NCBI GenBank assembly: GCA_965228475.1
Contig: OZ245817.1
Span: forward strand, 4,416,001 to 4,480,000
From: Myxococcota bacterium
Lineage (GTDB): Bacteria > Myxococcota_A > UBA9160 > JAFDDA01
Reading direction: 5' to 3'
Length of the DNA stretch: 64,000 nucleotides
This document shows, piece after piece, positions 15,803 through 50,406 of the stretch. Position 1 is the stretch's first letter. Every line of letters begins with the position of its first letter. The notes beneath the pieces are model-generated. The model made no database searches. It was not told the origin of the DNA and was given only the letters and a program-made list of their open reading frames with translations. A program made the translations under genes and the position numbers.

Positions 15803-16435
15803 ATGAGCGAGGAAGCCGGCGAGAGCGAGGAGACCGTCGCAGGGACGGAGGGCGAAGGCTCCCCCCCGACGCGCCTGGCCACGAGCCAGGTCAAGCGGCT
15901 CCGGCGCATCGTCGACGCGGCGTCGAAGCTCGCCGAGGAAGGCGGGTTCGAGGCCGTCCGGCTGCGCGACGTGGCCGAGGCTTCCGGGGTCGCCCTCGGC
16001 ACGCTCTACCGGTATTTCCGCAGCAAGGAAGACATCTTGGTGTTCGTCCTTGCCGAACAGGTCGACGGGCTCGAAGCCGCGCTCACCCGCCGGCCCCCCA
16101 CCGGCGCGACCCCCGCCGAGCGCGTGGGCGTCGTCTTCGGCCTGACCACCCGCGCCCTGACCGGCCGCCCGCACCTCGCCCGCGCGCTCCTGCGGGCGGT
16201 CTCCGCCGGCGAGCCCGAAACCAAGGAGAAGGTGGCTTCCTTCCATCTCCGGGTGAGCCGGATCGTGCTCGACGCCCTGCGCGGCGAGGGCGAAGCGACA
16301 CCGCGGCTCCACGGCGTGGCGACCATCCTCCAGCAGGTCTGGTTCGCTTCGCTCGTAGGCTGGACGGGCGGCCTGCACGACGCGAAGACCGTCATCCGCC
16401 AGACGGACGACGCCGCCGCCCTGCTTCTGGAGTAG
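15803..16435 (+). CDS. kstR: KstR-like TetR family regulator
   Basis: RIVDAASKLAEEGGFEAVRLRDVAEASGVALGTLYRYFRSK and C-terminal VWFASLVGW resemble mycobacterial KstR; steroid gene context. Confidence 0.75.
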   Translation: MSEEAGESEETVAGTEGEGSPPTRLATSQVKRLRRIVDAASKLAEEGGFEAVRLRDVAEASGVALGTLYRYFRSKEDILVFVLAEQVDGLEAALTRRPPTGATPAERVGVVFGLTTRALTGRPHLARALLRAVSAGEPETKEKVASFHLRVSRIVLDALRGEGEATPRLHGVATILQQVWFASLVGWTGGLHDAKTVIRQTDDAAALLLE

Positions 16436-16438
16436 CGG

Positions 16439-17158
16439 TCAGCCCTCTTCGCCGTAGTTCCGGACGCGGCACTCCTGGCCTTCGTCGCAGAGCTCGGCCA
16501 TCTCCCGCTCGAGCAGGCGGGTCCACTTCTCGATCAGGAACGTGTTGTAGGTGCCCGACGTCTCGGAGTCGAAGGCCTCGTGGCGCTCGTCGGTGTGGCG
16601 AAGCGTGATCTCGTAGACGCGCCGCAGGAACCCGTCGGTGCGCTTCTCGACGGGGATCGCGGCGATCTTCTGGTTGAGCCGGCGCGTGGCCACCTCGGCG
16701 ATCGCGAAGTGGATCTGCTCGTGCTGGAGGATGTACCAGTCCGGCGGGCGCCCGCCGAAGCTCATCGCGCCGACCGCAGCGAGCCCGAGGCGAGCCGCGC
16801 GCCCGACGGGGCTGATGATCTTGTTCCAGAACGAACAGTCGGGGCGCATCAGCGCGACGAACTCGCCGCTCGCCTCGTAGTCCTCGGCGGGGCGGATGAG
16901 CAGACAGACCTCGGCGTCGTGGGCGAAGTTCCCCCACGCCTTGTACGACGTCGCCGACTCGAAGTGATCCTTGGTGATGAGCTGGTAGCGGAGGACCGCG
17001 TCGCCGACCCAGGAGTCCGGGTCGCCGAAGACGCCGAGCTCCGCGTGCGCGCCCCCGGCTTCGGCCGTCTCGCTGACCGACGCCGCCCGGCCGGCGGGCT
17101 GCCGGCTGCAGCCCGTCACCAGGACGAGGAGCGAGAGCGCGAGGACCGTCCGACGCAT
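16439..17158 (-). CDS. Lipoprotein, DUF922-like (HExxH)
   Basis: Lipobox LVTGC; ILQHEQIHFAIAE...RRL; FDSET. Confidence 0.65.
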   Translation of the reverse strand: MRRTVLALSLLVLVTGCSRQPAGRAASVSETAEAGGAHAELGVFGDPDSWVGDAVLRYQLITKDHFESATSYKAWGNFAHDAEVCLLIRPAEDYEASGEFVALMRPDCSFWNKIISPVGRAARLGLAAVGAMSFGGRPPDWYILQHEQIHFAIAEVATRRLNQKIAAIPVEKRTDGFLRRVYEITLRHTDERHEAFDSETSGTYNTFLIEKWTRLLEREMAELCDEGQECRVRNYGEEG

Positions 17159-17172
17159 GCGCCCATTCTACA

Positions 17173-17204
17173 GACTGACCAGGGGGACGTTCCCCTGGTC
17201 AGTC
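17173..17204. repeat. REP-like palindrome, short variant
   Basis: GACTGACCAGGGG-GACGTT-CCCCTGGTCAGTC has the same ends as the element at 57200-57268. Confidence 0.8.
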
Positions 17205-18314
17205 GGCGGCGAGGGTACGACCCAATTCGGCGAGTTGGCGGTGCGCCGAGCCGAGGGTCAGCTCGATCTGGCGGGCCCACAGGTAGTAGCGGTGCACCGG
17301 GTAGTCGACGTCGACGCCCATGCCGCCGTGCAGATGGACCGCGGCGTAGGTCGCGTTGTGCCCCCCCTCGGCGGCCCAGTACTTGGCCACCGCGACGGCC
17401 TCCTCCGCGGGCTCGCCGGCCGCGAGCCGGCTCGAGGCCTGCCAGCTCGTGAGACGCATCGCCTCGATGCCGACGTAGGCATCCGCCGCGCGCTGGTGGA
17501 CGGCCTGGAAGCTTCCGATCGGGCGATCGAACTGTTCGCGCTGGGTCGTGTACTCGGCGGTGATGCGGATGGCGCGCTCCGCCACGCCGAGCGCCACGGC
17601 GCAGAGCGCGGCCTTCGCGCGCAGGGCCAGCCACGCGACGGCCGCCGCGCCCTCCTCCGGGCCCGCGAGCACGTCGTCGGCGTCGATGCGCGCACCGGAG
17701 AGCACGACGTGGGACTGCGGCTCGGAGTTCGTCGCCTCGACCGCCTGGAGCTCGACGCCATCCGCCGCCGGGTCGAGCAGGAAGAGCCCGATGCCCGTGT
17801 CGGTCCGGGCCGGGACGAGGATGCGCTCGGCCAGCGCGGCGAAGGGCACCGAGAGCTTCATGCCGTCGAGGCGCCAGCCGTCGCCGTCGCGCGAGGCCAC
17901 GGTGGCGGGCGTCGCCGGGTCTTCGTTCTCGGGCTCCGCGAGGGCCGCGGTCAGCACCGCATCGCCCGACGCGACGCGGGGCAGGAAGTGCGCCTTCTGC
18001 GCGTCGCTTCCGAACTCCTCGATCGGCAGCGCCCCGAGCACGAGCGTCGGAACGAGCGGCACCGGGGCGACCGCGCGGCCGCCCTCCTCGAGCAGCAGGG
18101 AGAGCTCCAGGAACCCCATGCCCATGCCCCCGTGCGCCTCGCCGATGGCGATGCCGAGCAGGTTCGACTTCGCGAGCTCGGCCCACAGCGTGCGGTCGAA
18201 GCACTCGCCGGCCTTTTCCAACTCGCGCAGGCGATCGTGCCCGCACAGGTCCGCGAAGATCTTCGCCGAGAGCTCGCGCAGGCTGTCCTGTTCGTCGGAG
18301 AACGAGAAGTCCAT
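17199..18314 (-). CDS. fadE27: Acyl-CoA dehydrogenase, FadE27/ChsE5-like subunit
   Basis: MDFSFSDEQ..., REQFDRPIGSFQAV, HLHGGMGVDVDYPVHRY; directly after the FadE26-like gene. Confidence 0.8.
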   Translation of the reverse strand: MDFSFSDEQDSLRELSAKIFADLCGHDRLRELEKAGECFDRTLWAELAKSNLLGIAIGEAHGGMGMGFLELSLLLEEGGRAVAPVPLVPTLVLGALPIEEFGSDAQKAHFLPRVASGDAVLTAALAEPENEDPATPATVASRDGDGWRLDGMKLSVPFAALAERILVPARTDTGIGLFLLDPAADGVELQAVEATNSEPQSHVVLSGARIDADDVLAGPEEGAAAVAWLALRAKAALCAVALGVAERAIRITAEYTTQREQFDRPIGSFQAVHQRAADAYVGIEAMRLTSWQASSRLAAGEPAEEAVAVAKYWAAEGGHNATYAAVHLHGGMGVDVDYPVHRYYLWARQIELTLGSAHRQLAELGRTLAAD

Positions 18315-18316
18315 GG

Positions 18317-19489
18317 CTAGTCCTTGTAGTGGGGCATGCCGAGGCCGGCCATCGCGATGATGTCGCGCTGGACCTCGTTGGTGCCGCCGCCGAAGGTGAG
18401 GATCAGCATCGAGCGGTACATCATCTCGATGCGGCCCATGAGCGCGGATTCGGGCGAGCCGCGCCGGATGGCGCCGTTCGCGCCGAGCACTTCGCCGAGC
18501 AGCCGGTAGCCGGCGATGTTGAACTCGCTGCCGAACACCTTGACCGCCGAGGCGTCGGCCATCGCGAGGTTGCCTTGGGTGAGCGCCCAGGCCTGTTTCC
18601 AGTTCATGAGCTTCAGCGTCTCGGCGTGGGCCTTCGCCTTGGCGAGGTTGAGCTGCACCCACGGCTCGTCGATCACGCGCTGGCCGTTGCGCTTCGTGTT
18701 GCGGGCCCACTCGACGACGAGCTCGACGTTGCGCTCGAGCGTCCCCGAGGCCATGAGCGAGACGCGCTCGTGGTTCAGCTGATTCACGATCAGGCCCCAG
18801 CCGCCGTTCTCCGGGCCGACCAGGTTCTCGACGGGGACGCGCACGTCGTCGTAGTACGTCGAGTTCGTCGAGATGCCGCCCACCGTCGGCGTCGGCGTCA
18901 TGCGGAAGCCTTCGGCATCGGTCGGGACGATGATCATCGAGATGCCGCGGTGCTTCGGGGCATCGGCGTCCGTGCGGCACGCGAGCCAGACGTAGTCGGC
19001 GTAGCCCGCGAGGCTCGTGAAGCTCTTCTGGCCGTTGATCACCCACTCGTCGCCGTCGCGCACGGCGCGGGTCACGAGCGAGCCGAGGTCGGTGCCGGCC
19101 CCCGGCTCGGAGTAGCCGATGCAGAAGAAGATCTCGCCGGCCAGGATCTTCGGCAGGAAGTAGCGGCGCTGCTCTTCGCTGCCGAACTGCATGAGCGTCG
19201 GGCCGACGGTGTTCAGCGTCAGGAAGGGGAGCGGAAAGCCCGAACGCTGCGCTTCGTCCGAAAACAGGTACTGCTCGATCGAGGAGCGCGCCTGGCCGCC
19301 GTACTCCTTCGGCCAGCCGATGCCGAGCAGACCGTCGCGGCCCATCTGCTTCATGGCGGCGCGGAAGAGCGGGCCGCCGCCCTCCGTACCGGAAATCTCC
19401 TCGACCATCTCCGGCGTCATGACCCGCTCGAAATACGTCCGCATCTCGTCGCGGAAGGCGCGCTGGTCGGGGGTGAGATCGATGTGCAT
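18317..19489 (-). CDS. fadE26: Acyl-CoA dehydrogenase, FadE26/ChsE4-like subunit
   Basis: IGYSEPGAGTDL, TSLAGYADYVWLA, QLNHERVSL, LILTFGGGTNEVQRDII. Confidence 0.82.
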   Translation of the reverse strand: MHIDLTPDQRAFRDEMRTYFERVMTPEMVEEISGTEGGGPLFRAAMKQMGRDGLLGIGWPKEYGGQARSSIEQYLFSDEAQRSGFPLPFLTLNTVGPTLMQFGSEEQRRYFLPKILAGEIFFCIGYSEPGAGTDLGSLVTRAVRDGDEWVINGQKSFTSLAGYADYVWLACRTDADAPKHRGISMIIVPTDAEGFRMTPTPTVGGISTNSTYYDDVRVPVENLVGPENGGWGLIVNQLNHERVSLMASGTLERNVELVVEWARNTKRNGQRVIDEPWVQLNLAKAKAHAETLKLMNWKQAWALTQGNLAMADASAVKVFGSEFNIAGYRLLGEVLGANGAIRRGSPESALMGRIEMMYRSMLILTFGGGTNEVQRDIIAMAGLGMPHYKD

Positions 19490-19571: not shown

Positions 19572-19585
19572 TAGAACGCGTTCTA
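19572..19585. promoter_or_regulatory. KstR operator
   Basis: Perfect palindrome TAGAACGCGTTCTA (TnnAACnnGTTnnA) between divergent fadE26-like and ferredoxin genes. Confidence 0.88.
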
Positions 19586-19665: not shown

Positions 19666-19857
19666 ATGAAGATCATCGTGGACTACGACCTGTGCGAAGC
19701 CAACGCCGTCTGCATGGCCGAAGCGCCGGAAGTCTTCGAAGTGGACGACGACGACAACCTGAACATCCTCGACGAGAACCCGGGCGAAGCGCTGCGGGCG
19801 AAGGTCGAGGCCGCCGTGCGCCTGTGCCCGAAGCAGGCGCTCAAGCTCGAAGGCTGA
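19666..19857 (+). CDS. fdxD: Ferredoxin ([3Fe-4S] type, FdxD-like)
   Basis: DLCEANAVCMAEAPEVF...AVRLCPKQAL. Confidence 0.88.
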   Translation: MKIIVDYDLCEANAVCMAEAPEVFEVDDDDNLNILDENPGEALRAKVEAAVRLCPKQALKLEG

Positions 19858-19866: not shown

Positions 19867-21048
19867 GTGGACTTCCGCGACTCCGAGAGCGAGGCCGCCT
19901 TCCGGACGGAAGCGCGCGCGTTCCTCGACGCCCACGCGCCGGACCCCGCGGAACTCTACGGCGAGGATCCGCTCGCGGCGTCGAACGTCGACGCCCACCG
20001 GGCGTGGCAGCGCACGCTCTACGAGCACGGCTGGGCCGGCCTCACCTGGCCGAAGGCCTACGGGGGCCGCGGCCTCGGCCCGATCGAGCAGATCATCTGG
20101 AACCAGGAGCTCGCGCGGAAGGAGGTCGGGCTCTCGATGTTCATGCCCGGCCTCGCGATGGCCGGGCCGACGCTCATCGCCCACGGCACCGAGGAACAGA
20201 AGCAGCGCTACCTCGAACCGCTGCTCCGCGGGGACGAGCTCTGGTGCCAGCTCTTCAGCGAGCCCGGGGCCGGGAGCGACCTCGCCGGGCTCGCCTGCCG
20301 CGCCGAGCGCGACGGCGACGAGTGGGTGATCCAGGGCCAGAAGACGTGGTCGTCGGGCGCCGAGGACTCCCAGTTCGGGATCCTCCTGTGCCGCACCGAC
20401 CCGACGGTGCCGAAGCACGAAGGCATCACCTACTTCCTGCTTCCGATGGATGCGCCGGGCGTCGAGGTCCGGCCGATCCGCCAGATGAACGATTCGACGC
20501 ACTTCGCCGATACCTTCCTGAACGAGGTGCGGATCCCGGACGCGTGCCGCCTCGGCCCCGTCGGGGGCGGCTGGTCCTGCGCGATGACCACGCTCCTGAA
20601 CGAGCGCATGGGCATGGGCGGCATGGAGACGTTCCGCTTCGAGGATCTGGCGGCGCTGGCGCGCGAGAACCGCGGCCGCCTGGACCCGGTGATGCGCGAC
20701 GACCTCGTGAAGGTCTGGGGCCACGGCAAGACGCTCGAGCTGCTGAACGCCCGCATCATCACCAAGCTCGGCCAGGGCGTGATGCCCGACGCCGAGAGTT
20801 CGGTCATGAAGCTCGCGATCGCACGGCTGATGAGCGAAGGCGCGGACATGGGCCTGCGCCTGCTCGGGCCGGACGCCCTGCTGCGGGCGGGCTCGTGGCA
20901 GAACCAGTTCCTGTTCGCCCCGGCCATGCACGTGGCCGGCGGCACGGACGAGATCCAGAAGAACGTCGCCGCCGAGCGCACGCTCGGCCTCCCGAAGGAG
21001 GAGCGGGGCGACCGCGAAACCGCCTTCCAGGATCTGCCCCGGAACTGA
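19867..21048 (+). CDS. Acyl-CoA dehydrogenase
   Basis: WCQLFSEPGAGSDLAGL, GQKTWSSGA, TTLLNER, AGGTDEIQKN. Confidence 0.92.
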   Translation: MDFRDSESEAAFRTEARAFLDAHAPDPAELYGEDPLAASNVDAHRAWQRTLYEHGWAGLTWPKAYGGRGLGPIEQIIWNQELARKEVGLSMFMPGLAMAGPTLIAHGTEEQKQRYLEPLLRGDELWCQLFSEPGAGSDLAGLACRAERDGDEWVIQGQKTWSSGAEDSQFGILLCRTDPTVPKHEGITYFLLPMDAPGVEVRPIRQMNDSTHFADTFLNEVRIPDACRLGPVGGGWSCAMTTLLNERMGMGGMETFRFEDLAALARENRGRLDPVMRDDLVKVWGHGKTLELLNARIITKLGQGVMPDAESSVMKLAIARLMSEGADMGLRLLGPDALLRAGSWQNQFLFAPAMHVAGGTDEIQKNVAAERTLGLPKEERGDRETAFQDLPRN

Positions 21049-26136: not shown

Positions 26137-26726
26137 TAGGCCCAGACCGCCACGATCAGACCCGCCGGCAGATCCACGAACCAGTGCTGCCGGGTCGCCA
26201 TCGTCGCGTAGAAGATCAGACCGCCCCAGACGAGCCCGGCCGCGAGGAGCAGCGGCTTCTTCCGGCCGAACACGTGGGCGGCGAAGAGCAACGAATACAC
26301 GGTCAATCCCGCGTGCAGGGACGGGAACGAGTTCGAAGGGCGGTCGACGCCGACGATCGCCCGGTAGACCGCGTGGTCCGGTACCTCCGCCGGCCGCGGC
26401 CCCTCGACGGGCATGAGCAGGAAGAACGCGAAGCACACGAAGCAGAGCCGGAAGAGGCCCTTCGCATAGCGAAGGAGATCCGCGCGGCGCTCGGCCAGGA
26501 GGGGCGCGAGCGGAACGAGCAGCGCGAGGGAGGCATAGGGCCATACCCAGGCCGGGTCGAAGGCGACGAGGCCGTCGATGGGGGTCGCGGGCACGTCGCG
26601 CGTCGGGAAGAGATGAACGCGCTGGAGGGTGAAGTAGGGGACGCAGATCCCGACGGCGAGCCCGAGCCAGACGGCGACCTTGGTGCGGAGTTCGGCGCCG
26701 AAGCGAGCGGCCAGGCTAGAAGCCAA
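26112..26726 (-). CDS. PAP2-superfamily membrane phosphatase/phosphotransferase
   Basis: NSFPSLHAG and TRQHWFVD motifs; multi-TM. Confidence 0.82.
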   Translation of the reverse strand: MASSLAARFGAELRTKVAVWLGLAVGICVPYFTLQRVHLFPTRDVPATPIDGLVAFDPAWVWPYASLALLVPLAPLLAERRADLLRYAKGLFRLCFVCFAFFLLMPVEGPRPAEVPDHAVYRAIVGVDRPSNSFPSLHAGLTVYSLLFAAHVFGRKKPLLLAAGLVWGGLIFYATMATRQHWFVDLPAGLIVAVWAYQTAVRRS

Positions 26727-27822
26727 GTTCGTCCGCGATGCGCGCCCGGTGCCAGGTGGCGTCCCCGAGCAGCTCGAGGCTCGACCGCGCGCGCTTGTAA
26801 TAGTGGTGCGGGGCGGCTTCGTCGGTCACGCCGATCCCGCCGTGGATCTGGATGTTGCTCGCCGCGCACTGCTGGTAGGCCTCGCTGCAGAGCGACTTGG
26901 CGAGGCTCGCGGCCTGGGGCAGCTCGGCGTCGCCTTCGGCGCAGGCCCAGGCGGCCCAGTAGGCCGCCGTCCGCGCGCCCTCGAGGGCGAGCAGCATGTC
27001 CGCACACCTGTGCTTGATCGCCTGGAACGCGCCGATCGGACGGCCGAACTGCATGCGCTCCTTGGCGTAGGCCACGGCCATCTCGAGGCACGCCTCGGCG
27101 CCGCCGAGGCACTCGAGGGCGAGCTGCGCGGCCGCCTCGTCGAGGGCCCGCGCGAGGCCGGCCGCGGCGTCGCCGCCGACCCGCACCGCCCGCGCCCCGT
27201 CGAGCTCGAGGTCCGCGAGCCGGCGCGTCGGGTCGAGGGTGGGCTGCGCGCTCGCCTTCGTTCCCGGAGCACCGGCCTCGAGCGCGAAGAGCGCCAGGCC
27301 GTCGGGCGCCCGCGCCACGACGAGCAGCAGGTCCGCCGTGTGGCCATCGACGACGAAACGTTTCGCGCCGTCGAGCATGAAGACGTCCCCGTCGGCGCGG
27401 GCCGTCATCGTGACGTCCGAGACGTCCCAGCTCGAACCCTCGACCCAGGCGAGGGTGGCCGTGCGCCGTCCGGAGGCGACGTCCGGCAGCCAGGCCGCGT
27501 GGTCCGCAGCGTCGCCGACGTGAACCAGCGCCGGCGTCGCGAGGCAGGCGGTCGCGAAGAACGGCGTGCAGGCGAGGGTGCGCCCGAGCTCCTCCTGGAC
27601 GATGCCGAGTTCCAGGGGCCCGAAGCCCTGGCCGCCGTGGGCCTCGGCGATGGCGATCCCGGGCAGGCCGAGCTCTTCGCTCATGGCCTTCCATAGCGCC
27701 GGGGCCCAGCCCTCGGCGCGGGCGCTCGCCTCGCGAACCTCGCTGAGCGGCGAGCGCTCGGCGAGGAAGCGCCGGATCTCGGCGCGGAAGGCTTCCTGTT
27801 CTTCACCGAATGCGAAGTTCAT
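26716..27822 (-). CDS. Acyl-CoA dehydrogenase
   Basis: MNFAFGEEQ, RMQFGRPIGAFQAIKHRCAD, IQIHGGIG. Confidence 0.92.
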   Translation of the reverse strand: MNFAFGEEQEAFRAEIRRFLAERSPLSEVREASARAEGWAPALWKAMSEELGLPGIAIAEAHGGQGFGPLELGIVQEELGRTLACTPFFATACLATPALVHVGDAADHAAWLPDVASGRRTATLAWVEGSSWDVSDVTMTARADGDVFMLDGAKRFVVDGHTADLLLVVARAPDGLALFALEAGAPGTKASAQPTLDPTRRLADLELDGARAVRVGGDAAAGLARALDEAAAQLALECLGGAEACLEMAVAYAKERMQFGRPIGAFQAIKHRCADMLLALEGARTAAYWAAWACAEGDAELPQAASLAKSLCSEAYQQCAASNIQIHGGIGVTDEAAPHHYYKRARSSLELLGDATWHRARIADELGF

Positions 27823-27969: not shown

Positions 27970-28005
27970 TAGAACCTGTTACAATTATTATTAGAACACG
28001 TTCCA
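27970..28005. promoter_or_regulatory. Tandem KstR operators
   Basis: TAGAACCTGTTACA (27970-27983) and TAGAACACGTTCCA (27992-28005) in the divergent promoter of two acyl-CoA dehydrogenase genes. Confidence 0.85.
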
Positions 28006-36731: not shown

Positions 36732-36737
36732 GTTCTA
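36724..36737. promoter_or_regulatory. KstR-like operator overlapping the sigma factor start codon
   Basis: TCCAACACGTTCTA fits TnnAACnnGTTnnA. Confidence 0.5.
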
Positions 36738-38210: not shown

Positions 38211-38224
38211 TAGAACGTGTTCTA
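38211..38224. promoter_or_regulatory. KstR operator
   Basis: TAGAACGTGTTCTA about 70 nt upstream of the chsH2-like gene. Confidence 0.88.
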
Positions 38225-38295: not shown

Positions 38296-39282
38296 ATGAG
38301 CAACCCCGCCGAAGCCAAGCGGGAGCTTGAAGCGAAGCTCCAGGAATTCGTCGGCCAGGAGACCGGGCCGGCGACGCTCGGGCTCGACACGGTCAACGAG
38401 CCGATGATCCGGCACTGGTGCGAGACCATGGGCGACGCGAACCCCGTCTACACCGACGCCGGCGTGGCCGAGAAGTCCGCCCACGGCGGCATCGTGGCGC
38501 CGCCGACCATGATGCAGGCCTGGATCATGCGCGGCGTCAGCATGGCGCGGCCGCCGGCCGGGGACGTCACCGACCGCCAGAACGAACTCCACGCCCTGCT
38601 CACCGAGAGCGGCTACCCCTCGGTCGTCGCCACGAACTGCGAGCAGGAGTACCACCGCTACCTGAAGCCCGGCGACGAAGTCGCGGCGAGCACCGTGATC
38701 GAATCCGTCTCCGAGCAGAAGGCCACGGCCCTCGGCATCGGATACTTCATCGACACGCGCACGAAGTTCGAGGTCGACGGAGAAGAGGTCGGCTGGATGA
38801 CCTTCCGCGTGCTGAAGTTCAAGCCGAACGCGGCGCCGGCCGCGGCGGCCAGCGACGAAGACGCGGGCGGGCCCATGTCCGGCACGCCGAAGCGGCTGCG
38901 TCCCAGCCTCGGCCACGACAACCAGTGGTGGTGGGAGGCCGTCGACGCGGGGAAGTTCCTCGTGCAGAAGTGCTCCTCGTGCGGCGTCGTGCGCCACCCG
39001 CCGCGCGCGATGTGCGGCGAGTGCCAGTCGATCGAGTGGGAGGGCGTCGAGGCCGAGATGAAGGGCACCGTGCACAGCTTCACGGTGATCCATCATCCGC
39101 AGGTGCCCGGATACGAATATCCCCTCGTCTCGGCGCTGATCGACCTCGAGATCGGCACGCGCTTCGTCTCGAACGTGGTCGGCTGCGACCCGGCCGACGT
39201 GCACGTCGGAATGAAGGTCGTCGGAACGATCGAGGCGGTCGACGACGAAATGAACCTCCCGATCTTCCGGCCGGCGAACTGA
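38296..39282 (+). CDS. chsH2: Steroid enoyl-CoA hydratase subunit ChsH2-like (MaoC-like plus DUF35 Zn-ribbon/OB fold)
   Basis: VNEPMIRHWCETMGDANPVY, APPTMMQAWIM, SVVATNCEQEYHRYL; CSSC...HPPRAMCGEC. Confidence 0.88.
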   Translation: MSNPAEAKRELEAKLQEFVGQETGPATLGLDTVNEPMIRHWCETMGDANPVYTDAGVAEKSAHGGIVAPPTMMQAWIMRGVSMARPPAGDVTDRQNELHALLTESGYPSVVATNCEQEYHRYLKPGDEVAASTVIESVSEQKATALGIGYFIDTRTKFEVDGEEVGWMTFRVLKFKPNAAPAAAASDEDAGGPMSGTPKRLRPSLGHDNQWWWEAVDAGKFLVQKCSSCGVVRHPPRAMCGECQSIEWEGVEAEMKGTVHSFTVIHHPQVPGYEYPLVSALIDLEIGTRFVSNVVGCDPADVHVGMKVVGTIEAVDDEMNLPIFRPAN

Positions 39283-39283: not shown

Positions 39284-40402
39284 ATGGATTTCGACTACAG
39301 CGACGAACAGGAATCCATCCGCGATCTCGCCCGCGAGATCCTCGAGAACGAGATCGACGCCGACCGTCTGAAGGAGATCGGCGCGAGCGACGCCTGGTTC
39401 GACGAGGCGCTGTGGAAGCAGCTCGGCGAAGCGAACCTGCTCGGCGTGGCCGTGCCCGAAGCCCACGGCGGGATGGGGTTCGGCTTCGAGGAGCTCTGCG
39501 TCCTGCTGGTCGAGCAGGGGCGTGCGCTCGCCCCCGTCCCGCTCCATGCGACGGCGACGGCGGGGCTGGCCCTGGCGCGCGCGGGGAGTGCCGCGCAGCA
39601 GGAGGCCTGGCTCCCGGGTGTGGCGAGCGGCGAGGCGATCTTCGCCCTGGCACTGGACGATGCCGCCTCGGTCTCGCCCGAAGCTCCGGCCACGCGTGCC
39701 GAACCCAAGGGCGACGCGTTCACGCTCACGGGCACGAAGCGGTTCGTGCCCTCCGCGCATCTCGCGAAGCGCCTCGTCGTTCCTGCGAGCATCGCGGACG
39801 GCGCCGCGCTGTTCCTCGTCGCTCCCGATGCGCCCGGCGTGACGCTGACCCGGCAGCGCGCCTCCAGCGGCGAGCCGCTCTTCGCACTGACCCTCGACGG
39901 CGCCGCCGCCGAACGCATCGGGGATTCGGACGGAGCCATCGTTCGCTGGCTGCACGAAGCCGCGACGATCGGCCTGTGCGCCCTCCAGACGGGCGTCTCC
40001 GAGAAGGCGCTCGAGATCACCACGGGCTACGTGCGCGAACGCGAGCAGTTCGGCGGGCCGATCGGCGCCTTCCAGGCCGTGCAGCACCGCTGTGCGGACG
40101 GCTACATCGACCTCGAATCGATCCGCTGGACGATGTGGCGCGCGGCCTCCCGGCTGGCCCGCGGCCTCGCGGTTCCGCGCGAAGCGGCCGTCGCGAAGTT
40201 CTGGGCGGCGGACGGCGGCTCGCGCGTCGCCGGCTCGGCGCAGCACCTCCACGGCGGCATCGGTGTCGACGTCGACTACCCGATCCACCGCTACTTCCTG
40301 TGGACGAAGGCCCTCGAGTTCCGGCTCGGCGCCGCCACGCCCACCCTGGTCCAACTCGGCCGCGACCTCGCCGCCGCACCCCCGGAGCCCGCCCGCGCAT
40401 GA
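39284..40402 (+). CDS. Acyl-CoA dehydrogenase, FadE28/FadE27-type subunit
   Basis: MDFDYSDEQ, REQFGGPIGAFQAV, HLHGGIGVDVDYPIHRY; igr-like context. Confidence 0.88.
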   Translation: MDFDYSDEQESIRDLAREILENEIDADRLKEIGASDAWFDEALWKQLGEANLLGVAVPEAHGGMGFGFEELCVLLVEQGRALAPVPLHATATAGLALARAGSAAQQEAWLPGVASGEAIFALALDDAASVSPEAPATRAEPKGDAFTLTGTKRFVPSAHLAKRLVVPASIADGAALFLVAPDAPGVTLTRQRASSGEPLFALTLDGAAAERIGDSDGAIVRWLHEAATIGLCALQTGVSEKALEITTGYVREREQFGGPIGAFQAVQHRCADGYIDLESIRWTMWRAASRLARGLAVPREAAVAKFWAADGGSRVAGSAQHLHGGIGVDVDYPIHRYFLWTKALEFRLGAATPTLVQLGRDLAAAPPEPARA

Positions 40403-40812
40403 GCCAGACGCTTTCCTACGCCGAAGTCTCCGTCGGCGACGAACTGCCGGCCCTCGACGTGCCCCTCGACACGACCCTGATCGTGAGCACGGCCATCGCC
40501 TCGCGCGACTTCACGCCCGTGCACCACGACAAGGCCGCGGCCCAGGCCCAGGGCATGGGCGACGTCTTCATGAACATCCTCACCACGAACGGCTTCGTCG
40601 GCCGCTTCGTGACGGACTGGGCGGGCCCCGATGCGGTGCTCAAGAACGTCGCGATCAAGCTCGGCGCACCGAATCTGCCGGGCGACACCATGAAGATGCG
40701 CGGCAAGGTCGAGAGCAAGGACGGAGGCGTCGTGTCCGTCTCCGTCGTGGGCAAGAACAATTGGGGCGACCACGTCACGGGCACCGTGAAGCTGTCGCTG
40801 CCGGGAGCCTAG
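40399..40812 (+). CDS. chsH1: MaoC-family hydratase ChsH1-like
   Basis: TTLIVSTAIASRDFTPVHHD, DVFMNILTTNGFVGRFVTDWAGP. Confidence 0.88.
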   Translation: MSQTLSYAEVSVGDELPALDVPLDTTLIVSTAIASRDFTPVHHDKAAAQAQGMGDVFMNILTTNGFVGRFVTDWAGPDAVLKNVAIKLGAPNLPGDTMKMRGKVESKDGGVVSVSVVGKNNWGDHVTGTVKLSLPGA

Positions 40813-40814: not shown

Positions 40815-41984
40815 ATGCCGACGACGCTCAAGGACGAAGCCGCCATCGTCGGCATCGGGCAGACCGAGTTCAGCAAGAACTCCGGCCGGTCGGAGGTGCA
40901 GCTCGCGAGCGAGGCGATCGCCGCCGCCATCGCCGACGCCGGCCTCGAGCCGAGCCAGATCGACGGCCTCACCACCTTCACGATGGACACGAGCGACGAG
41001 ATCGAGGTCGCCCGCGCCGTCGGCATCGGCGACATCACCTTCTTCAGCCGCATTCCGTACGGCGGCGGCGCCGCCATCGGCGTGATGCACCAGGCGGCCA
41101 TGGCCGTCGCGACGGGCACCGCCAAGTACGTCGTCGTCTACCGCGACCTGAACGGCCGCTCGGGTCAGCGCTACGGCGAGGGCATCGCCAACGGGCCCAC
41201 CACGAGCGATCTCATCCACTGGAGCTGGTACATGCCCTGGGGCCTCATGACCCCCGCCAGCTGGGTCGCCATGTTCGCCACGCGCTACATGCACGAGACG
41301 GGCACGAAGAGCACGGACCTCGCCGAGGTCGCGGTGCAGCAGCGCAAGCACGCGGTGAACAACCCGGCGGCGTTCTTCTACCAGCAGCCGCTCACGATCG
41401 AGGAGCACCAGGCCTCGCGCATGATCGCCGAGCCGCTCCACCTCTATGATTGCTGCCAGGAGACCGACGGCGCGACGGCCTGCATCGTGACGACGCCCGA
41501 GCGCGCCCGCGACCTCGCCCAGCCGGGCGTCGTGATCCGCGCCGTGGCCCAGGCCGCGGGCGCCGACGCCGAGCAGATGACGAGCTTCTACCGCGAGGAC
41601 CTGACGCGTCTCGTCGAGATGGAGATGGTCGGAAAGCAGCTCTGGGAGACGAGCGGCCTCGGCCCGAACGACATCGACGCCGCGGTGCTCTACGACGCCT
41701 TCACCCCGAACGTGCTCTGGCAGCTCGAGGCCTTCGGCTTCTGCGGCTTCGGCGAGGCGAAGGACTTCGTGAAGGACGGCGCCTTCGGGCTCGGCGGGCG
41801 CCTGCCCACGAACACCCACGGCGGTCAGCTCTCCGAAGCGTATCTGCACGGCATGAACGGCGTGAACGAAGGCGTCCGGCTCGTGCGCGGCACGTCCCAC
41901 AATCAACCCGAGAAGAACGACCACGTGCTCGTCACCGCCGGCGTCGGCGTCCCCACGAGTGGCATGGTGCTCGGAAAGCTCTAG
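40815..41984 (+). CDS. ltp2: Steroid side-chain aldolase Ltp2-like (thiolase fold)
   Basis: AAIVGIGQTEFSKNSGRSE, DCCQETDG, LYDAFTP, NTHGGQLSEAYLHGMNG. Confidence 0.88.
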   Translation: MPTTLKDEAAIVGIGQTEFSKNSGRSEVQLASEAIAAAIADAGLEPSQIDGLTTFTMDTSDEIEVARAVGIGDITFFSRIPYGGGAAIGVMHQAAMAVATGTAKYVVVYRDLNGRSGQRYGEGIANGPTTSDLIHWSWYMPWGLMTPASWVAMFATRYMHETGTKSTDLAEVAVQQRKHAVNNPAAFFYQQPLTIEEHQASRMIAEPLHLYDCCQETDGATACIVTTPERARDLAQPGVVIRAVAQAAGADAEQMTSFYREDLTRLVEMEMVGKQLWETSGLGPNDIDAAVLYDAFTPNVLWQLEAFGFCGFGEAKDFVKDGAFGLGGRLPTNTHGGQLSEAYLHGMNGVNEGVRLVRGTSHNQPEKNDHVLVTAGVGVPTSGMVLGKL

Positions 41985-43175
<1,191 letters not shown>

Positions 43176-43179: not shown

Positions 43180-44100
43180 ATGGGTTCTTTGGACGGAAAG
43201 GTCGCGGTCGTCACCGGCGCCGCGCACGGACTCGGACGGCTCCACGCGCTCGGCCTCGCGGCCGAGGGCGCGAAGGTGGTGGTGAACGATCTCGGCGTCG
43301 CCGCCGACGGCTCGGGCCGGGACGACAGCGCCGCCCAGGCCGTGGTCGACGAGATCAAGAGTGCCGGCGGCGAGGCCCTGGCCCACTCGGGCGACGTCGC
43401 GAACTTCGCCGATGCGGAAGGCATGATCCGCGCCGCCATCGACACCTACGGCGACCTCGACATCCTGATCAACAACGCCGGCTTCACCCGCGACGGCACG
43501 ATCTTCAACCTCACCGAGGACGAGTTCGATTCCGTCATGCGCGTCCACGTGAAGGGCCACTTCGCGCCCTCGAAGTTCGCCATGGCCCACTGGCGCGCGA
43601 AGTCGAAGGAAGCGGGCGGCCCGGTCTACGGCCGGCTCGTCTCGACGGCGAGCGAGTCGTTCCTATTCGCCCCGCCCGGCCAGCCGAACTACTCGGCCGC
43701 CAAGGCCGGCATCGTCGCCATGACCATGGGCCTCGCGCAGCTCGGCCAGCGCTACGGCGTGACGGCCAACGTCGTTCTCCCGCGCGCGCGCACGCGCATG
43801 ACCCTGGTCGGCCCGACCGCGGCGATCTTCCAGAAGCCCGAGGAAGGCTTCGACAACTTCGCCCCGGAGAATTCGAGCCCGCTCTTCGTGTACCTGTGCA
43901 CGCCCCAGGCCGAGCGCATCTCGGGCCACGTCTTCGTGGTCTGGGGCCAGCAGGTGAAGGTGGTCGGCCGCCCGGACCCGAACGCCGCGATGTTCCAGAC
44001 CGGCGAGCACTGGAACCTCGAGACCCTCCACGCCGAGCTCGGCCCCCACTTCGAGAAGCTCGAGCCCGTCACCGACGGCTACAGCGTCCCGGCGATGTAG
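43180..44100 (+). CDS. SDR oxidoreductase (3-hydroxyacyl-CoA dehydrogenase, Rv3502c/Hsd4A-like)
   Basis: TGAAHGLG, NNAGFTRD, YSAAKAG, PRARTRMT. Confidence 0.88.
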   Translation: MGSLDGKVAVVTGAAHGLGRLHALGLAAEGAKVVVNDLGVAADGSGRDDSAAQAVVDEIKSAGGEALAHSGDVANFADAEGMIRAAIDTYGDLDILINNAGFTRDGTIFNLTEDEFDSVMRVHVKGHFAPSKFAMAHWRAKSKEAGGPVYGRLVSTASESFLFAPPGQPNYSAAKAGIVAMTMGLAQLGQRYGVTANVVLPRARTRMTLVGPTAAIFQKPEEGFDNFAPENSSPLFVYLCTPQAERISGHVFVVWGQQVKVVGRPDPNAAMFQTGEHWNLETLHAELGPHFEKLEPVTDGYSVPAM

Positions 44101-47169: not shown

Positions 47170-48324
47170 CTAGGGCTTCTCCGCGCCGACGATCCACATC
47201 GCGAAGAACTGGGAACCGCCGCCGTAGGCATGGCCGAGCGCGCGCTTCGCGCCGTCGACCTGGTGCTCCCCGGCCATGCCGCGCACCTGCATCGCGGCTT
47301 CGGCGAAGCGGATCATGCCCGACGCGCCGATCGGGTTCGAGGAGAGCACGCCACCCGACATGTTGACCGGGAGGTCGCCGTCGAGCGCGGTCGCACCTTC
47401 GTAGGTCATCTTCCAGCCTTCCCCGGCCGGCGCGAAGCCGAGGTTCTCCATCCACATGGGCTCGAACCAGCTGAACGGGACGTAGATCTCCGCGCAGTCG
47501 AGGTCCTGGCGCGGGTTCTGGATGCCGGCCTTGGCGTAGAGCTCCTTGGCGCACTCCCGGCCCGCGTGCGGGTTCACCTGATCGCGCCCGGCGAACTGCG
47601 TCGGCTCGCTGCGCATGGCGGTGCCGTGCACCCAGGCCGGGTTCTTCGTGCTGGAGGCGCCCTGCTCGTTCGAGAGCACCATCGCGCACGCGCCGTCCGA
47701 GGACGGGCAGGTCTCGAGGTAGCGGATCGGGTCCCACAGCATGGGCGAGTTGGCGATCGCCTCGAAGGTGACGTCCGGCACCTTCAGGTGCGCGTAGGGG
47801 TTCTTGAGCGCGTTCAGCCGGTCCTTCAGCGCGACGCGGATGCCCGTGTCGTCCGGCGCCTCGGAGCGTGCCATGTAGGCCCGGATCAGCGGCGCGAAGT
47901 AGCCGCCCGCGCCCGCCACCACCGCCACCGAGAACGGCATCGAGATGGTGAGCGCCCACATGGCGTTGCTCTCGGACTGCTTCTCGTAGGCCACCGTGAG
48001 CACGCGCTCGTGGATGCCGGCCTCGATCAGGCTCGAGGCCACGCAGGCCGTGCTGCCGCCGACGCTGCCCGCCGTGTGCACGCGCAGCATGGGCTTCCCC
48101 ACGGCGCCGAGAGCGTCCGCCAGGAAGAGCTCGGGCATCATCACGCCCTCGAACATGTCGGGGGCCTTGCCGACGACGACGGCGTCGATGTCGCCCCAGT
48201 CGCAGCCCGCGTCCTCGAGGGCGCGCTGCGCCGCTTCGCGCACGAGGCCCTGCTGAGAGACGTCGCCTCGGTTCGCGTCGTGCTTGGTCTGGCCGATCCC
48301 GACCACCGCGCAACGTTCCGCCAT
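47170..48324 (-). CDS. ltp3: Thiolase-fold protein Ltp3-like
   Basis: VVGKAPDMFEGVMMPELFL, RVHTAGSVGGST, ETCPSSDGACA, GHAYGGGSQFFAMW. Confidence 0.88.
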   Translation of the reverse strand: MAERCAVVGIGQTKHDANRGDVSQQGLVREAAQRALEDAGCDWGDIDAVVVGKAPDMFEGVMMPELFLADALGAVGKPMLRVHTAGSVGGSTACVASSLIEAGIHERVLTVAYEKQSESNAMWALTISMPFSVAVVAGAGGYFAPLIRAYMARSEAPDDTGIRVALKDRLNALKNPYAHLKVPDVTFEAIANSPMLWDPIRYLETCPSSDGACAMVLSNEQGASSTKNPAWVHGTAMRSEPTQFAGRDQVNPHAGRECAKELYAKAGIQNPRQDLDCAEIYVPFSWFEPMWMENLGFAPAGEGWKMTYEGATALDGDLPVNMSGGVLSSNPIGASGMIRFAEAAMQVRGMAGEHQVDGAKRALGHAYGGGSQFFAMWIVGAEKP

Positions 48325-49376
48325 CACTCGCCCTCCAGGACGCACACGAGGTTCTGCTGCAGGCAGGGGCCCGAGGTCGCGTGCGCCACGCCCCGGCCGG
48401 CCGATCCGTCGAGGATGCGGTTCGCCACCTCACCGATGCGCGTGAGCCCCGCGCTCATGATGGGGTGCGCCGAAAGAACCCCCCCGGACGGGTTCACGTC
48501 GCAGTCGCCCGCGAGCCCGAGCGCCTCGGTCACCAACCGCTCCTGGTGACTGAAGGGCGCGTAGACCTCGGCCACGTCGACCCCGCCCTTGCCGACGCCG
48601 GCCTTCTCGGCCGCGATCTGCGTGGACGCCGACACCGTGAGGTCGCGCGCACCGAGCGAGTGCGGCTCGATGCGGTGGTCGAAGCCGCGGATCCAGGCCG
48701 GGCGCTTCGCCACGCTCTTCGCGAGGTCCGCCGATGCGATCACCAGGGCCGACGCGCCGTCGGTGATCGGCGGGCAGTCGTGCTGGCGCAGCGGGTTCGC
48801 GACGTAGGGCTCGGCGAGCAGCGCGTCGACGTCGAAGTCGCCCACCAGGTGCGCGTTCGGGTTCGACCTGCCCTTGGCCCGGTTGCGCACCGCGATCTCC
48901 GCCATCTCGCGCTCGCTGATGCGGCCGGCGTCGAGCATCTTGCGCGCCTGGAGCGCGGCCATGTGGATCGCGCTGGGCCAGAGCGGCGTCAGCAGGTAGG
49001 GGTCGAGCTGCAGCGTCACCACGTCGGCCGGGCTCCCCATGGAGCTCTTGCCGAAGCCGTAGACCAGCGCCGACTCGCACTGACCGGTCTGGATCTTGAC
49101 CCAGGCCTCGTAGAGCGCCCAGGCGCCGTCCATCTCGACGTGGCTCTCGGCGATCGGCGGCCAGGCGCCCACCGCGTCGAGGGCCATCACGAAGGAGAAG
49201 GGCTGCCCGGCGATGTAGTCGCAGCTGCCGGAGCAGACGAACCCGATCTCTTCTCGGGGGATGCCCGACGCCTCGACCGCGCGCGGAATCACGTCGAGCA
49301 GCATCTCGACCTCGTTGCGCGAGTCGCTGCGAACGCTCGGGACCTGGGCGAAGGAAACGACGGCGACGTCGCGCAT
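48324..49376 (-). CDS. ltp4: Thiolase-fold protein Ltp4-like
   Basis: CSGSCDYIAGQPFSF, PPIAESHVEMDGAWALYEAW, AHATSGPCLQQNLVCV. Confidence 0.88.
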   Translation of the reverse strand: MRDVAVVSFAQVPSVRSDSRNEVEMLLDVIPRAVEASGIPREEIGFVCSGSCDYIAGQPFSFVMALDAVGAWPPIAESHVEMDGAWALYEAWVKIQTGQCESALVYGFGKSSMGSPADVVTLQLDPYLLTPLWPSAIHMAALQARKMLDAGRISEREMAEIAVRNRAKGRSNPNAHLVGDFDVDALLAEPYVANPLRQHDCPPITDGASALVIASADLAKSVAKRPAWIRGFDHRIEPHSLGARDLTVSASTQIAAEKAGVGKGGVDVAEVYAPFSHQERLVTEALGLAGDCDVNPSGGVLSAHPIMSAGLTRIGEVANRILDGSAGRGVAHATSGPCLQQNLVCVLEGE

Positions 49377-49861
49377 CACAGGTGCTCCTGGAAGGATTCG
49401 ATCGGGACGTCCGGCTCGCCCGTCGGCTCGAAGTATTCGATGCTGCGCAGGGTCGGCCCGAGCTCGGCCTTGGGCACCCAGTGAGCCTTCACACGCATGC
49501 CCATGCGCACCTCTTCGGGCTCGCAGCCGTGGATCACGTGGAAGAAGGGGATGTCGGCCCCGTCGAGCAACACGTGGGCGGCCACGAAGGGCGGATCCAC
49601 CGAGAGGTTCTCGGCCGGGATGCGCACGACGCAGAACGTCGTGACGGTGCCCGTGTCCTTCACCTCGACCTCGTCGGTCAGCGCGACGGCATCCGCGGGG
49701 CAGCTGCCGCGCGGCGGCACGTAGACCTTGCCGCTCACCGGGCTGCGGCGGCCGAGGATCTTGCCCTGGGCGAGGCCGTGCAGGAAGACCTGCGCCGCCT
49801 CGCCGGCCGTGAACGTGTACTCGAGGTGGATCGGCGTGATGATCGTTTCGACCTTGGCCAT
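49376..49861 (-). CDS. DUF35 Zn-ribbon/OB-fold protein (like the C-half of Rv3521)
   Basis: GKVYVPPRGSCP, GTVTTFCVV, LLDGADIPFFH, EVRMGMRVKAHW, IEYFEPTGEPD. Confidence 0.85.
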   Translation of the reverse strand: MAKVETIITPIHLEYTFTAGEAAQVFLHGLAQGKILGRRSPVSGKVYVPPRGSCPADAVALTDEVEVKDTGTVTTFCVVRIPAENLSVDPPFVAAHVLLDGADIPFFHVIHGCEPEEVRMGMRVKAHWVPKAELGPTLRSIEYFEPTGEPDVPIESFQEHL

Positions 49862-49863
49862 GA

Positions 49864-50328
49864 CTAGGCGCCCTCCCCTGCATCCGCCTGGGGAACGAAA
49901 CACTCGAGGTCCCGGATGCCACCCGCGGGCTCGCTCTTGAATCGCGCGGTGACGCGCATGCCGGTCGACATGGCGCTCTCGGAGCCCGCGTCGACGCAGT
50001 GCAACAGCTCGGTGTCGGCGCCGTCGATCTGGATCAGGGCGAAGGCGAAGGGCTTCGCGAGCGCGTGGCGATCCTGCGGCTCGCTCACCCAGGTCCAGCT
50101 GCGGACGGTGCCGCCGGGCCCGACGTCGACCATCTCCCCGGTCGCTGCGCCGGTCTCGGGGTCGTACTCCGCGGGCGGGCACAGCACGCGGCCGCCCGAG
50201 GTCCTCGCGCCGAGGAGCTTTCCATCCTGGAGAGCGGAGAAGAACGCGCCCATCACCGGGCCCACGCTGCGCCGGTAGTCGTACTCGACGACGTGCGTGG
50301 CGGTGAGGGGAGACTGGCTCTGGGCCAT
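49864..50328 (-). CDS. DUF35 OB-fold protein (like the N-half of Rv3521)
   Basis: YRRSVGPVMGAFF, GRVLCPPAEYDPETG, PFAFALIQIDGADT, MSTGMRV. Confidence 0.85.
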   Translation of the reverse strand: MAQSQSPLTATHVVEYDYRRSVGPVMGAFFSALQDGKLLGARTSGGRVLCPPAEYDPETGAATGEMVDVGPGGTVRSWTWVSEPQDRHALAKPFAFALIQIDGADTELLHCVDAGSESAMSTGMRVTARFKSEPAGGIRDLECFVPQADAGEGA

Positions 50329-50392
50329 CGGGGTAACCTCCCGTGATCACTCGACTTTCGGGCCCGCGGGGGACTCGCCTGCCGAGCGTAAT

Positions 50393-50406
50393 TGAAACAC
50401 GTTCTA
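50393..50406. promoter_or_regulatory. KstR operator
   Basis: TGAAACACGTTCTA about 65 nt upstream of the DUF35-ltp4-ltp3-kstR operon. Confidence 0.82.

Follow-up and report, generated by a model that had tools for sequence, protein, structure and literature searches.

Operators of the KstR type and two KstR-like TetR repressors in a 64,000-nucleotide stretch of a Myxococcota genome (assembly GCA_965228475.1; the whole stretch is termed the window) probably constitute a switch for sterol side-chain degradation that is old and vertically inherited within the host's order. On the evidence of sites, genes, fold, conservation and host, the palindromes are predicted operators of both repressors, each of which would bind TnnAACnnGTTnnA as a dimer over promoters, as suggested by their co-occurrence, and repress operons whose products (FadE26/27, FadE28/29-type, ChsH1/H2, Ltp2, Ltp3/4, FadA5 and Hsd4A) would shorten the steroid side chain by beta-oxidation. 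We infer that an early acyl-CoA product of this pathway lifts repression and that the genes are expressed when the cell has access to a foreign sterol. An outside source of the substrate is expected because no squalene or oxidosqualene cyclase was found in the genome, for which reason endogenous sterol remodelling was dropped as a role of the regulon. Control would cover the side chain and not A/B-ring cleavage, unlike in mycobacteria, and the circuit is also predicted in other Myxococcota classes and in Binatia.

All six 14-mer palindromes of the original prediction were recovered at their coordinates (Table 1), compared with 0.07 expected by chance, and none of 100 shuffles reached six. Five are intergenic and precede four side-chain beta-oxidation loci, as had been claimed, while the sixth (36724) scores lowest (15.6 bits vs 21.7–26.0 for the others) and has no steroid gene beside it. 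Both the motif and its target positions match those published for KstR, whose operator and targets Rv3503c/3504, Rv3520c/3521 and Rv3515c/3516 were described by Kendall 2007 (PMC1995591), supporting identity of these sequences with the KstR operator, and a matrix trained on the window recovers the published KstR target sites in G149, a genome with a mycobacterial-type cluster. Sigma-70-like promoter matches touch the 27970 and 27992 operators (match at 27964–27991) and the 38211 operator (38182–38211); none was found at the 19572 and 50393 operators. Several of these arrangements recur in relatives: an operator lies upstream of fadE26-like loci in 18/29 relatives' loci, the 22-bp pair also stands 5′ of the orthologue of the 28083 gene in G041, and the L022 orthologue of the 15803 repressor gene has an upstream site scoring the same as the 15777 site.

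Table 1 Repressors, operators and side-chain genes, in window coordinates
Feature	Position	Strand	Basis or context
Degenerate operator, one good half-site	15777..15790	.	~26 bp 5′ of kstR-like gene 1; PWM 10.3 bits
KstR-like TetR repressor 1, 210 aa	15803..16435	+	Reciprocal best hit, G149 KstR
FadE27 (ChsE5)-like acyl-CoA dehydrogenase subunit	17199..18314	-	Reciprocal best hit G149, 40%
FadE26 (ChsE4)-like acyl-CoA dehydrogenase subunit	18317..19489	-	Reciprocal best hit G149, 56%
Operator	19572..19585	.	Between divergent fadE26/27 and ferredoxin; position of Rv3503c/Rv3504 site
Ferredoxin, FdxD-like by position	19666..19857	+	Fer4_13
Acyl-CoA dehydrogenase	19867..21048	+	37% to G149 FadE34-like protein
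Acyl-CoA dehydrogenase small subunit	26716..27822	-	Without clear orthologue
Tandem operators, 22 bp apart	27970..28005	.	Flank sigma-70-like -10 box
FadE26/FadE29-type large subunit	28083..29267	+	FadE29 name by gene order only
Pattern match, doubtful operator	36724..36737	.	Overlaps predicted GTG start of ECF sigma-factor gene
Operator	38211..38224	.	Touches -10 box of chsH2 operon
ChsH2, hydratase and DUF35 domain	38296..39282	+	4WNB, 6OK1_B; Pfam; reciprocal best hit G149
FadE27/FadE28-type small subunit	39284..40402	+	FadE28 name by gene order only
ChsH1, MaoC hydratase	40399..40812	+	46% best hit, one way; Pfam
Ltp2-type aldolase	40815..41984	+	Over NCBIfam cut-off
FadA5-type steroid 3-ketoacyl-CoA thiolase	41997..43175	+	NF005889 603 bits, cut-off 515
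Hsd4A-like short-chain dehydrogenase	43180..44100	+	43% best hit; under both NCBIfam cut-offs
KstR-like TetR repressor 2, 184 aa	46606..47160	-	Last gene of ltp4-ltp3 operon
Ltp3	47170..48324	-	Over NCBIfam cut-off; reciprocal best hit G149, 65%
Ltp4	48324..49376	-	Over NCBIfam cut-off; reciprocal best hit G149, 54%
Two DUF35 OB-fold genes (split Rv3521-like)	49376..50328	-	G149 comparison, Pfam
Operator	50393..50406	.	Before OB-OB-ltp4-ltp3-kstR operon; position of Rv3520c/Rv3521 site
Alpha/beta-hydrolase-like protein, candidate regulon member	50547..51758	+	Divergent from OB-OB-ltp4-ltp3-kstR operon; ESM Atlas features, score 0.99

The assignment of the 15803 and 46606 genes as KstR-like was upheld: M. 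tuberculosis KstR is the best solved-structure match of both proteins (E 5e-26 and 8e-22), and among the genome's 51 matches to NF033703 these two score highest (121 and 117 bits; next 49), which makes them, on these profiles, the only KstR-like proteins of the genome. Both fall under the NF033703 equivalog cut-off of 280 bits, as do 7/8 actinobacterial matches (122–201 bits). TetR_N and TetR_C_20 domains are present, and the predicted model of the 15803 protein superposes on KstR (5FMP) with Z 26.2 and rmsd 1.5 Å over 183 aligned residues, compared with Z 17.7 for the next unrelated TetR. Identity to G149 KstR is 52–54% in the N-terminal part, where the recognition-helix motif V-A-x-G-T-x-Y varies little or not at all over 19 actinobacterial and 84 other rows, and 24% in the ligand domain. 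KstR is released from DNA by 3-oxo-4-cholestenoic acid or its CoA ester; in the ligand domain of the two proteins the conserved Trp is kept, while the Arg six residues before it, presumably the contact for the 3-oxo group, is replaced by Thr or Gly; this Arg occurs in 15/19 actinobacterial vs 2/84 other rows. The repressors form a sister clade of actinobacterial KstR, and their ligand pocket has diverged.

Enzyme names were assigned from NCBIfam cut-offs and reciprocal best hits to the mycobacterial-type cluster of G149, and most of those originally proposed stood: FadE26/27, ChsH2 and Ltp3/4 as reciprocal best hits, Ltp2, Ltp3, Ltp4 and FadA5 over cut-offs, and ChsH1 as a one-way best hit. 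For the FadE28/29 label gene order is the sole basis (in L043 the 28083-type gene is the first gene, ahead of chsH2); the 28083 protein shares 52% identity with FadE26 and 47% with FadE29, and together with the 39284 protein forms a pair nearer FadE27/26 than FadE28/29. The LNHER motif is kept in the FadE26-like protein (4X28_A match, E 5e-142), the Cys/His/Cys motifs in the FadA5-type thiolase, and the catalytic pair Tyr294 and Tyr344 in the Ltp2-type aldolase, where His296 is replaced by Ala (residue roles in PMC12329534). The ferredoxin gene is divergent from fadE26 in 11/29 relatives' loci, and the 19867 acyl-CoA dehydrogenase gene follows it 3′ in several relatives too. A Pfam search of the 50547 protein gave no match. 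Presence of the side-chain beta-oxidation gene set in the host is supported by these homologies.

The host genome is a single 5.0-Mb contig encoding LpxC (343 bits, cut-off 187) and BamA (548 bits, cut-off 297), and its RpoB has UBA4427 together with two Myxococcota-titled genomes as its sister group (SH-aLRT 99). By these markers the host, an uncultured relative of the myxobacteria, is a diderm member of the Myxococcota, class UBA9160, near UBA4427, in agreement with the diderm host originally proposed, for which a marker-gene classification had been suggested as a check. The five PEP-CTERM genes cited for that proposal correspond to five PEP-CTERM-like C-termini in the window (93 genome-wide); its plural sigma-54 promoters reduce to one consensus match within the window.

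Outside the window, 6/13 site-bearing transcription units hold a steroid-cluster homologue vs 80/2025 site-free units (divergent units share sites, so that these counts overstate significance), suggesting that the motif is commoner at steroid genes than elsewhere, a point on which the original prediction had staked itself; the other 7/13 units have no such homologue. Genes preceded by a site there include an EchA19-like gene, a P450 gene of the CYP125/124 type and a nitronate-monooxygenase-like gene. A full C/D-ring gene set (ipdA/B/C/F, echA20, fadA6, fadD3 and fadE30-33-like genes, 38–67% identity to G149) lies elsewhere in the genome than the window, and one 20-bit site (C1:3505573) stands before a 13-gene unit containing ipdAB. 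No KstR-type site was found within 1500 bp upstream of ipdA in 29 loci, a range that would miss the C1:3505573 site too. The absence of ring-cleavage genes (kstD, kshA, hsa) from the window held and extends to the whole genome, in which neither the A/B-ring enzymes (kstD, kshAB, hsaA-G) nor mce4 have orthologues; three KshA-family Rieske proteins show 31–32% identity, and HsaC reaches 64 bits vs a cut-off of 366, with no tblastn match. Among ring-gene regions taken from relatives, 0/12 carry the operator. A search of the genome for a KstR2 orthologue found none (best 55 bits). We take AnCAAGnnCTTGnT to be the KstR2 operator pattern; it finds two G149 sites, at the expected places, and none in the host genome or in 30 ipdA loci. 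The host shares the enzyme set of the KstR2/HIP (C/D-ring) regulon (PMC5380842) but has neither its regulator nor its sites. With A/B-ring genes, mce4 and KstR2 missing genome-wide and the ligand domain diverged, the description of the KstR circuit as 'intact' had to be abandoned.

The KstR-like repressor was found in 34/40 relatives. In 24/28 relatives' loci the 400 bp upstream of the repressor gene contain an operator (downstream in 2/29), as they do in 44/53 named non-actinobacterial loci (downstream in 0/52), although kin are non-independent and such locus counts overstate significance. Ltp3 occurs in 27/29 repressor-positive genomes, and 25/35 encode IpdA without an above-cut-off HsaA. 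The tree of KstR against Actinobacteria, called for originally, was inferred as a quick tree in which the repressors follow host families (minimum of 9 changes for 10 families) and are split from actinobacterial KstR with SH-aLRT 100; the outgroup TetRs were too distant to root it, one falling inside the ingroup. Since most relatives carry it, the KstR-type control circuit is, as judged from genomes, not confined to Actinobacteria, and because the repressor tree follows host families apart from actinobacterial KstR, the circuit appears to be an old, inherited, order-wide trait rather than a recent import. The Ltp tree, also called for, is less decisive: Ltp3 forms a deep polytomy in which Actinobacteria are not kept on one side, making transfer between phyla at some depth likely.

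That the genes were recently acquired from an actinobacterium by horizontal transfer, or that the assembly is chimeric, was already disfavoured and is barely credible. All three plasmid-collection records with homologues are actinobacterial, and the Ltp3 tree sets Actinobacteria on more than one side; against this stand the presence of LpxC, BamA and a Myxococcota-type RpoB on one and the same contig, a GC3 of 0.90–0.97 for 17 genes (genome median 0.93), the recurrence in L022 of the gene order adjoining asd, and the repressor's spread and separation from actinobacterial KstR. The data support a non-actinobacterial host and a non-chimeric assembly, contrary to a possibility that the original prediction had raised. 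It is very unlikely that the operators are real but read by another regulator, the KstR-like genes having other targets, for which one could cite the lack of a strong site directly before either repressor gene in the host or in two same-family loci, the 51 TetR-like matches and the other TetR genes adjoining sites 546150 and 3505573. In the rest of the order, however, a site lies 26–175 bp before the KstR-like gene in 24/26 loci, and in the host gene 46606 ends a site-headed operon while gene 15803 keeps its degenerate site.

The same repressors and operators could instead serve a non-sterol branched or cyclic lipid with a different effector, candidate substrates being hopanoid, isoprenoid or other triterpenoid side chains. 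We consider this improbable, if less so than the foregoing. It would fit the diverged ligand domain and lost Arg, the missing A/B-ring pathway, the His296 replacement in the regulated Ltp2 and the many unregulated paralogues (no site of at least 10 bits was found at the closest paralogues of Ltp2, FadA5, EchA19, FadD19, Cyp142 and FadE34, all located elsewhere), but not the retained C3-specific tyrosine pair of Ltp2 or the presence of ChsH1/H2 and a complete C/D-ring set, whose enzymes act on steroid-derived HIP (PMC5380842). A sterol side-chain switch remains our preferred reading. More speculatively, and with a low chance of being right, the KstR switch and the side-chain and C/D-ring modules may form an ancient core present in the class ancestor (and Binatia) that was the source, not the recipient, of the actinobacterial system; the host and similar members would then either cleave the A/B rings in a way not described before, with divergent Rieske proteins and KstD-like proteins such as that at C1:3544173, or use ring-cleaved steroids from neighbours, and would respond to an effector other than a 3-oxo-4-ene.

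The system shares with the KstR regulon of Mycobacterium and Rhodococcus (Rv3574/MSMEG_6042) the operator, TetR fold, recognition helix, self-regulation and targets (fadE26/27 with ferredoxin, Rv3521-ltp4-ltp3, chsH/ltp2, fadA5, an echA19-like gene and a P450 gene). It differs in its diderm Myxococcota host, two paralogous repressors, a ligand domain 24% identical, the lack of kstD, kshA, hsa and mce4 targets, and operons scattered among PEP-CTERM and housekeeping genes. Side-chain enzymes in Gram-negatives are already known from Comamonas (ChsE1E2/ChsH1H2/Ltp2, PMC12502768), and homologous enzymes also occur in the Gram-negative, proteobacterial Shy/Sal system (PMC12329534); we found no report of a KstR-type regulator and operator in Comamonas-type systems, and according to a review KstR is absent from the proteobacterial degraders (PMC8399759). 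In literature that takes in few subscription journals, neither KstR nor the breakdown of steroids was found reported for Myxococcota, UBA9160 or Binatota. According to published surveys of genomes and metagenomes, aerobic degradation of steroids is limited to Actinobacteria and Proteobacteria. Neither a KshA nor an HsaC orthologue, the criterion of Holert 2018 for aerobic degraders of the 9,10-seco type as approximated here, was found in the host genome, and organisms like this host would probably be missed because one such survey demanded a KshA or HsaC match (PMC5790920). A widespread, still uncultured order that has kept repressor, operator and target positions suggests overlooked consumers of sterol side chains, and its repressors represent natural variants of the ligand pocket of a well-studied repressor. 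The absence of A/B-ring genes beside the presence of C/D-ring genes is a directly testable mismatch, and the finding would push the beginnings of the KstR circuit far back.

Exactly six matches to TnnAACnnGTTnnA lie in the window, as originally predicted, where 0.07 are expected and none of 100 shuffles reaches six; the equation of this motif with the KstR operator agrees with the published operator in the available text of PMC1995591. Genome-wide, 15 of 32 exact matches are intergenic, with an intergenic share of the genome of only 10%, and 11 permuted palindromes used as a control gave 0-4 intergenic matches each. A matrix trained on five intergenic window sites (threshold 15 bits) found 18 genomic sites, of which 15 are intergenic, 10 of these not used in training; 30 column-shuffled matrices gave a mean of 1.4 and a maximum of 5. 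Genes were called with our own dicodon model (4358 genes), in which start codons are predictions; site 36724, which lies over the start predicted for an ECF sigma gene, is a doubtful operator. From the fadE29-like gene to the next operator the distance is ~10 kb in the window and ~3 kb in G041, a genome with an orthologue of the tandem-operator locus. Tandem operators spaced by exactly 22 bp occur in the window and in loci L042, L046, L047, L050, L051, L054, L059, L073 and L120; this spacing was seen in 9 of 12 close operator pairs in the loci scanned, mostly in one related clade and before the repressor gene.

The two TetR genes were rightly called KstR-like: KstR is the best match of both among solved structures, and they are the only strong ones (121 and 117 bits; next 49) among 51 genomic matches to NF033703, though below its cut-off of 280. 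They share about 50% identity. For the 15803 protein, an AlphaFold model (pLDDT 92.6) superposes on KstR at Z 26.2 (rmsd 1.5 A), with unrelated TetRs from Z 17.7 down. Compared with the KstR of G149, the reference genome with an unannotated mycobacterial-type steroid cluster, which passes the NF033703 cut-off (336 bits), their DNA-binding part is 52-54% identical and their ligand part 24%. The pocket Trp is conserved in the repressor alignment, and an Arg six residues before it, which we take to contact the steroid 3-oxo group, is present in 15/19 actinobacterial rows vs 2/84 others.

Target positions are shared too: a site separating ferredoxin from fadE26 and another ahead of Rv3521-ltp4-ltp3 are common to the window, G149 and the list in PMC1995591, as far as its available text goes. 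Outside the window, 6/13 site-bearing transcription units hold a cluster homologue vs 80/2025 others (Fisher p 6e-6, its significance exaggerated by sites common to two divergent units).

Genes in the G149 cluster were named by mycobacterial gene order, with NCBIfam and PDB checks where possible. The predicted side-chain enzymes stood for FadE26, FadE27, ChsH2, Ltp3 and Ltp4, which, like Rv3521 and KstR, are reciprocal best hits to G149, and for Ltp2 and FadA5, which pass curated cut-offs, as do Ltp3 and Ltp4; the FadE28/29 labels have only gene order, in locus L043, as their basis. Window Ltp2 retains Tyr294 and Tyr344, with Ala in place of His296; the tyrosines are catalytic and replacing His296 costs 14-fold, according to the available text of PMC12329534. 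The closest genomic matches to G149 Ltp2, FadA5, EchA19, FadD19, Cyp142 and FadE34 lie outside the window loci and have no site. Three consecutive PEP-CTERM-like genes separate the chsH and ltp operons, and a loose pattern finds 93 such C-termini in the genome.

Feature coordinates (window, or C1, the single contig of host genome G000; L, fetched loci)
Feature	Position	Remarks
Operator sites	window 19572, 27970, 27992, 36724, 38211, 50393	
Tandem operators	window 27970-28005	
KstR-like TetR genes	window 15803, 46606	
ECF sigma gene, mscL	window 36153-37165	between fadE29-like gene and chsH2
PEP-CTERM-like genes	window 1046-1465, 21609-22343, 44233-44865, 45166-45846, 45912-46592	
Large secreted-looking protein	window 22513-25224	three DUF7467 domains
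Large secreted-looking protein	window 2604-5594	no Pfam match
Second hsd4B-OB-ltp2 cluster	C1:2411504-2413932	nearer mycobacterial Ltp2 (66%, YDHF intact); no operator
C/D-ring (HIP) set	C1:3507689-3519042, 3533670-3537359	complete; 38-67% identity; IpdA E 9e-107 to 6CO6; parts covered by L007, L015
TetR gene, 20-bit KstR-type site	C1:3505573	head of C/D-ring unit
Divergent KstD-family flavoprotein	L015:8173-9831 (C1:3544173-3545831)	7 kb from fadD3; adjoins P450
KshA-family Rieske oxygenases	L016:7757-8728, L017:3960-4886, L018:6297-7256	31-32% to mycobacterial-type KshA; none with strong operator
855-aa protein	L008:4662-7229	no Pfam or NCBIfam match; 20-bit site 101 bp upstream
MMPL/sterol-sensing-domain protein	L012:5913-8249	15-bit site
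EchA19-like gene		outside window; site upstream; 53% identity
CYP125/124-type P450		outside window; site upstream
Nitronate-monooxygenase-like gene		outside window; site upstream; reciprocal best hit to G149
F420-type LLM gene		outside window; site upstream
Acyl-CoA ligase/dehydrogenase pair		outside window; site upstream
MMPL-family gene		outside window; site upstream

The host, a single contig of 5,006,157 bases (96% complete, 2% contaminated), is diderm and non-actinobacterial as supposed: LpxC and BamA score above cut-off, 17 regulon genes have a GC3 that is usual for the genome, and in a quick RpoB tree (21 rows) its sister group consists of three genomes with the titles Myxococcota, Myxococcales and UBA4427 (SH-aLRT 99). 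According to preprint 10.64898/2026.07.10.737566, UBA4427 belongs to class Vahlivitia, formerly UBA9160, of Myxococcota_A; the main text of this preprint, where available, does not mention steroids or sterols.

A repressor profile, A1, built from 46 of the available sequences, matches 34/40 relatives in 12 families and, in a phylum sample, 15/18 same-order, 3/3 same-class and 16/99 other genomes. Among the best 80 of 574 loci in a GTDB scan, titles of Myxococcota, delta-proteobacteria and Binatia predominate, followed by Acidimicrobiia and Streptomyces; these loci therefore allow no statement on Proteobacteria. The repressor gene has a site in the 400 bp before it in 24/28 relatives' loci (downstream 2/29; loci available for 30 of 38 profile matches), 44/53 named non-actinobacterial loci (0/52) and 23/27 actinobacterial loci (3/27); fadE26-like genes have one upstream in 18/29 loci and downstream in 0/29. 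The KstR-like genes of Streptomyces loci L075-L101 have a TAGAACAAGTT-type site some 130-370 bp in front of them, and most of these loci have no steroid genes nearby. The repressor tree (94 rows; outgroups, identical rows, L084, our own duplicate and 16 Streptomyces rows were left out) splits 17 actinobacterial from 77 other rows (SH-aLRT 100), and the 10 families of its 24 same-order rows need 9 changes, vs 16-17 in the five shuffles listed; adding outgroups did not resolve its root. The Ltp3 tree (41 rows) does not separate them: Actinobacteria need 4 changes and are one-sided in 0% of 200 bootstrap trees, although no starred branch requires this. An old exchange between phyla, in either direction, seems likely from these sequences. 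Eight records (L024, L029, L037, L038, L047, L050, L051, L066) titled Spirochaetales, Gammaproteobacteria, Rickettsiales or Opitutales have repressors nested among Myxococcota, and the L037 genome has RpoB of Myxococcota type; their titles look unreliable and they were left out of the count of further phyla. L084, a Candidatus Hydrogenedens record with a repressor, three operators and OB-ltp4-ltp3-fadE26 genes, possibly represents a further phylum with the system.

The lack of ring-cleavage genes noted for the window extends to the whole genome, which has no orthologue of KstD (best 306 bits vs cut-off 789; 29-30% identity), HsaA (132 vs 450), HsaC (64 vs 366), HsaE or HsaG. With neither KstR2 nor its operator found and mce4 matches of only 25-30%, the claim of an intact KstR circuit is not supported. 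IpdA was found in 30 of 41 genomes, HsaA passed its cut-off in 7, and no genome had a KstD that did so, with 12 reaching ≥500 bits; 35 repressor-positive genomes yielded FadE26-like genes in 32, IpdA in 28 and HsaA in 6, shortfalls that mean not found rather than absent because several genomes are incomplete. No site was found in the relatives' ring-gene regions (0/12). The KstD-family flavoprotein retains the tyrosines aligned to AcmB (7P18) and has a Tyr-x-Ser motif, which we take to be that of delta-4-5-alpha dehydrogenases; matches to this family are frequently on the ipdA contig in relatives. The three Rieske oxygenases are candidates for a ring or side-chain hydroxylation, and the L008 and L012 proteins for uptake parts replacing Mce4.

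In their available texts, PMC4810484 and PMC5790920 assign the 9,10-seco pathway to Actinobacteria and Proteobacteria, the latter survey requiring KshA or HsaC; PMC5380842 defines the C/D-ring enzymes, and PMC12502768 describes side-chain enzymes in Comamonas. Our literature search found no report of a KstR-type regulon in Myxococcota. The feature is real. It resembles the KstR regulon in operator, fold and target positions and differs in lacking the ring-cleavage arm and scoring below the curated cut-off; it probably works in a KstR-like way, but is filed as a sister-clade variant because the curated membership score failed and that arm is lacking. The sites stand at promoters, two in the window touching sigma-70-like boxes, and their pairing with repressors of KstR fold is conserved. 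Repressor dimers would keep these genes silent and be released when an acyl-CoA intermediate from the oxidation of a sterol side chain binds to them. The cell would gain propionyl- and acetyl-CoA from sterols that would be foreign, because no squalene/oxidosqualene cyclase was found in the genome; it may release the intact nucleus, use cross-fed ring-cleaved products via its own C/D-ring enzymes, or open the A/B rings by another route.
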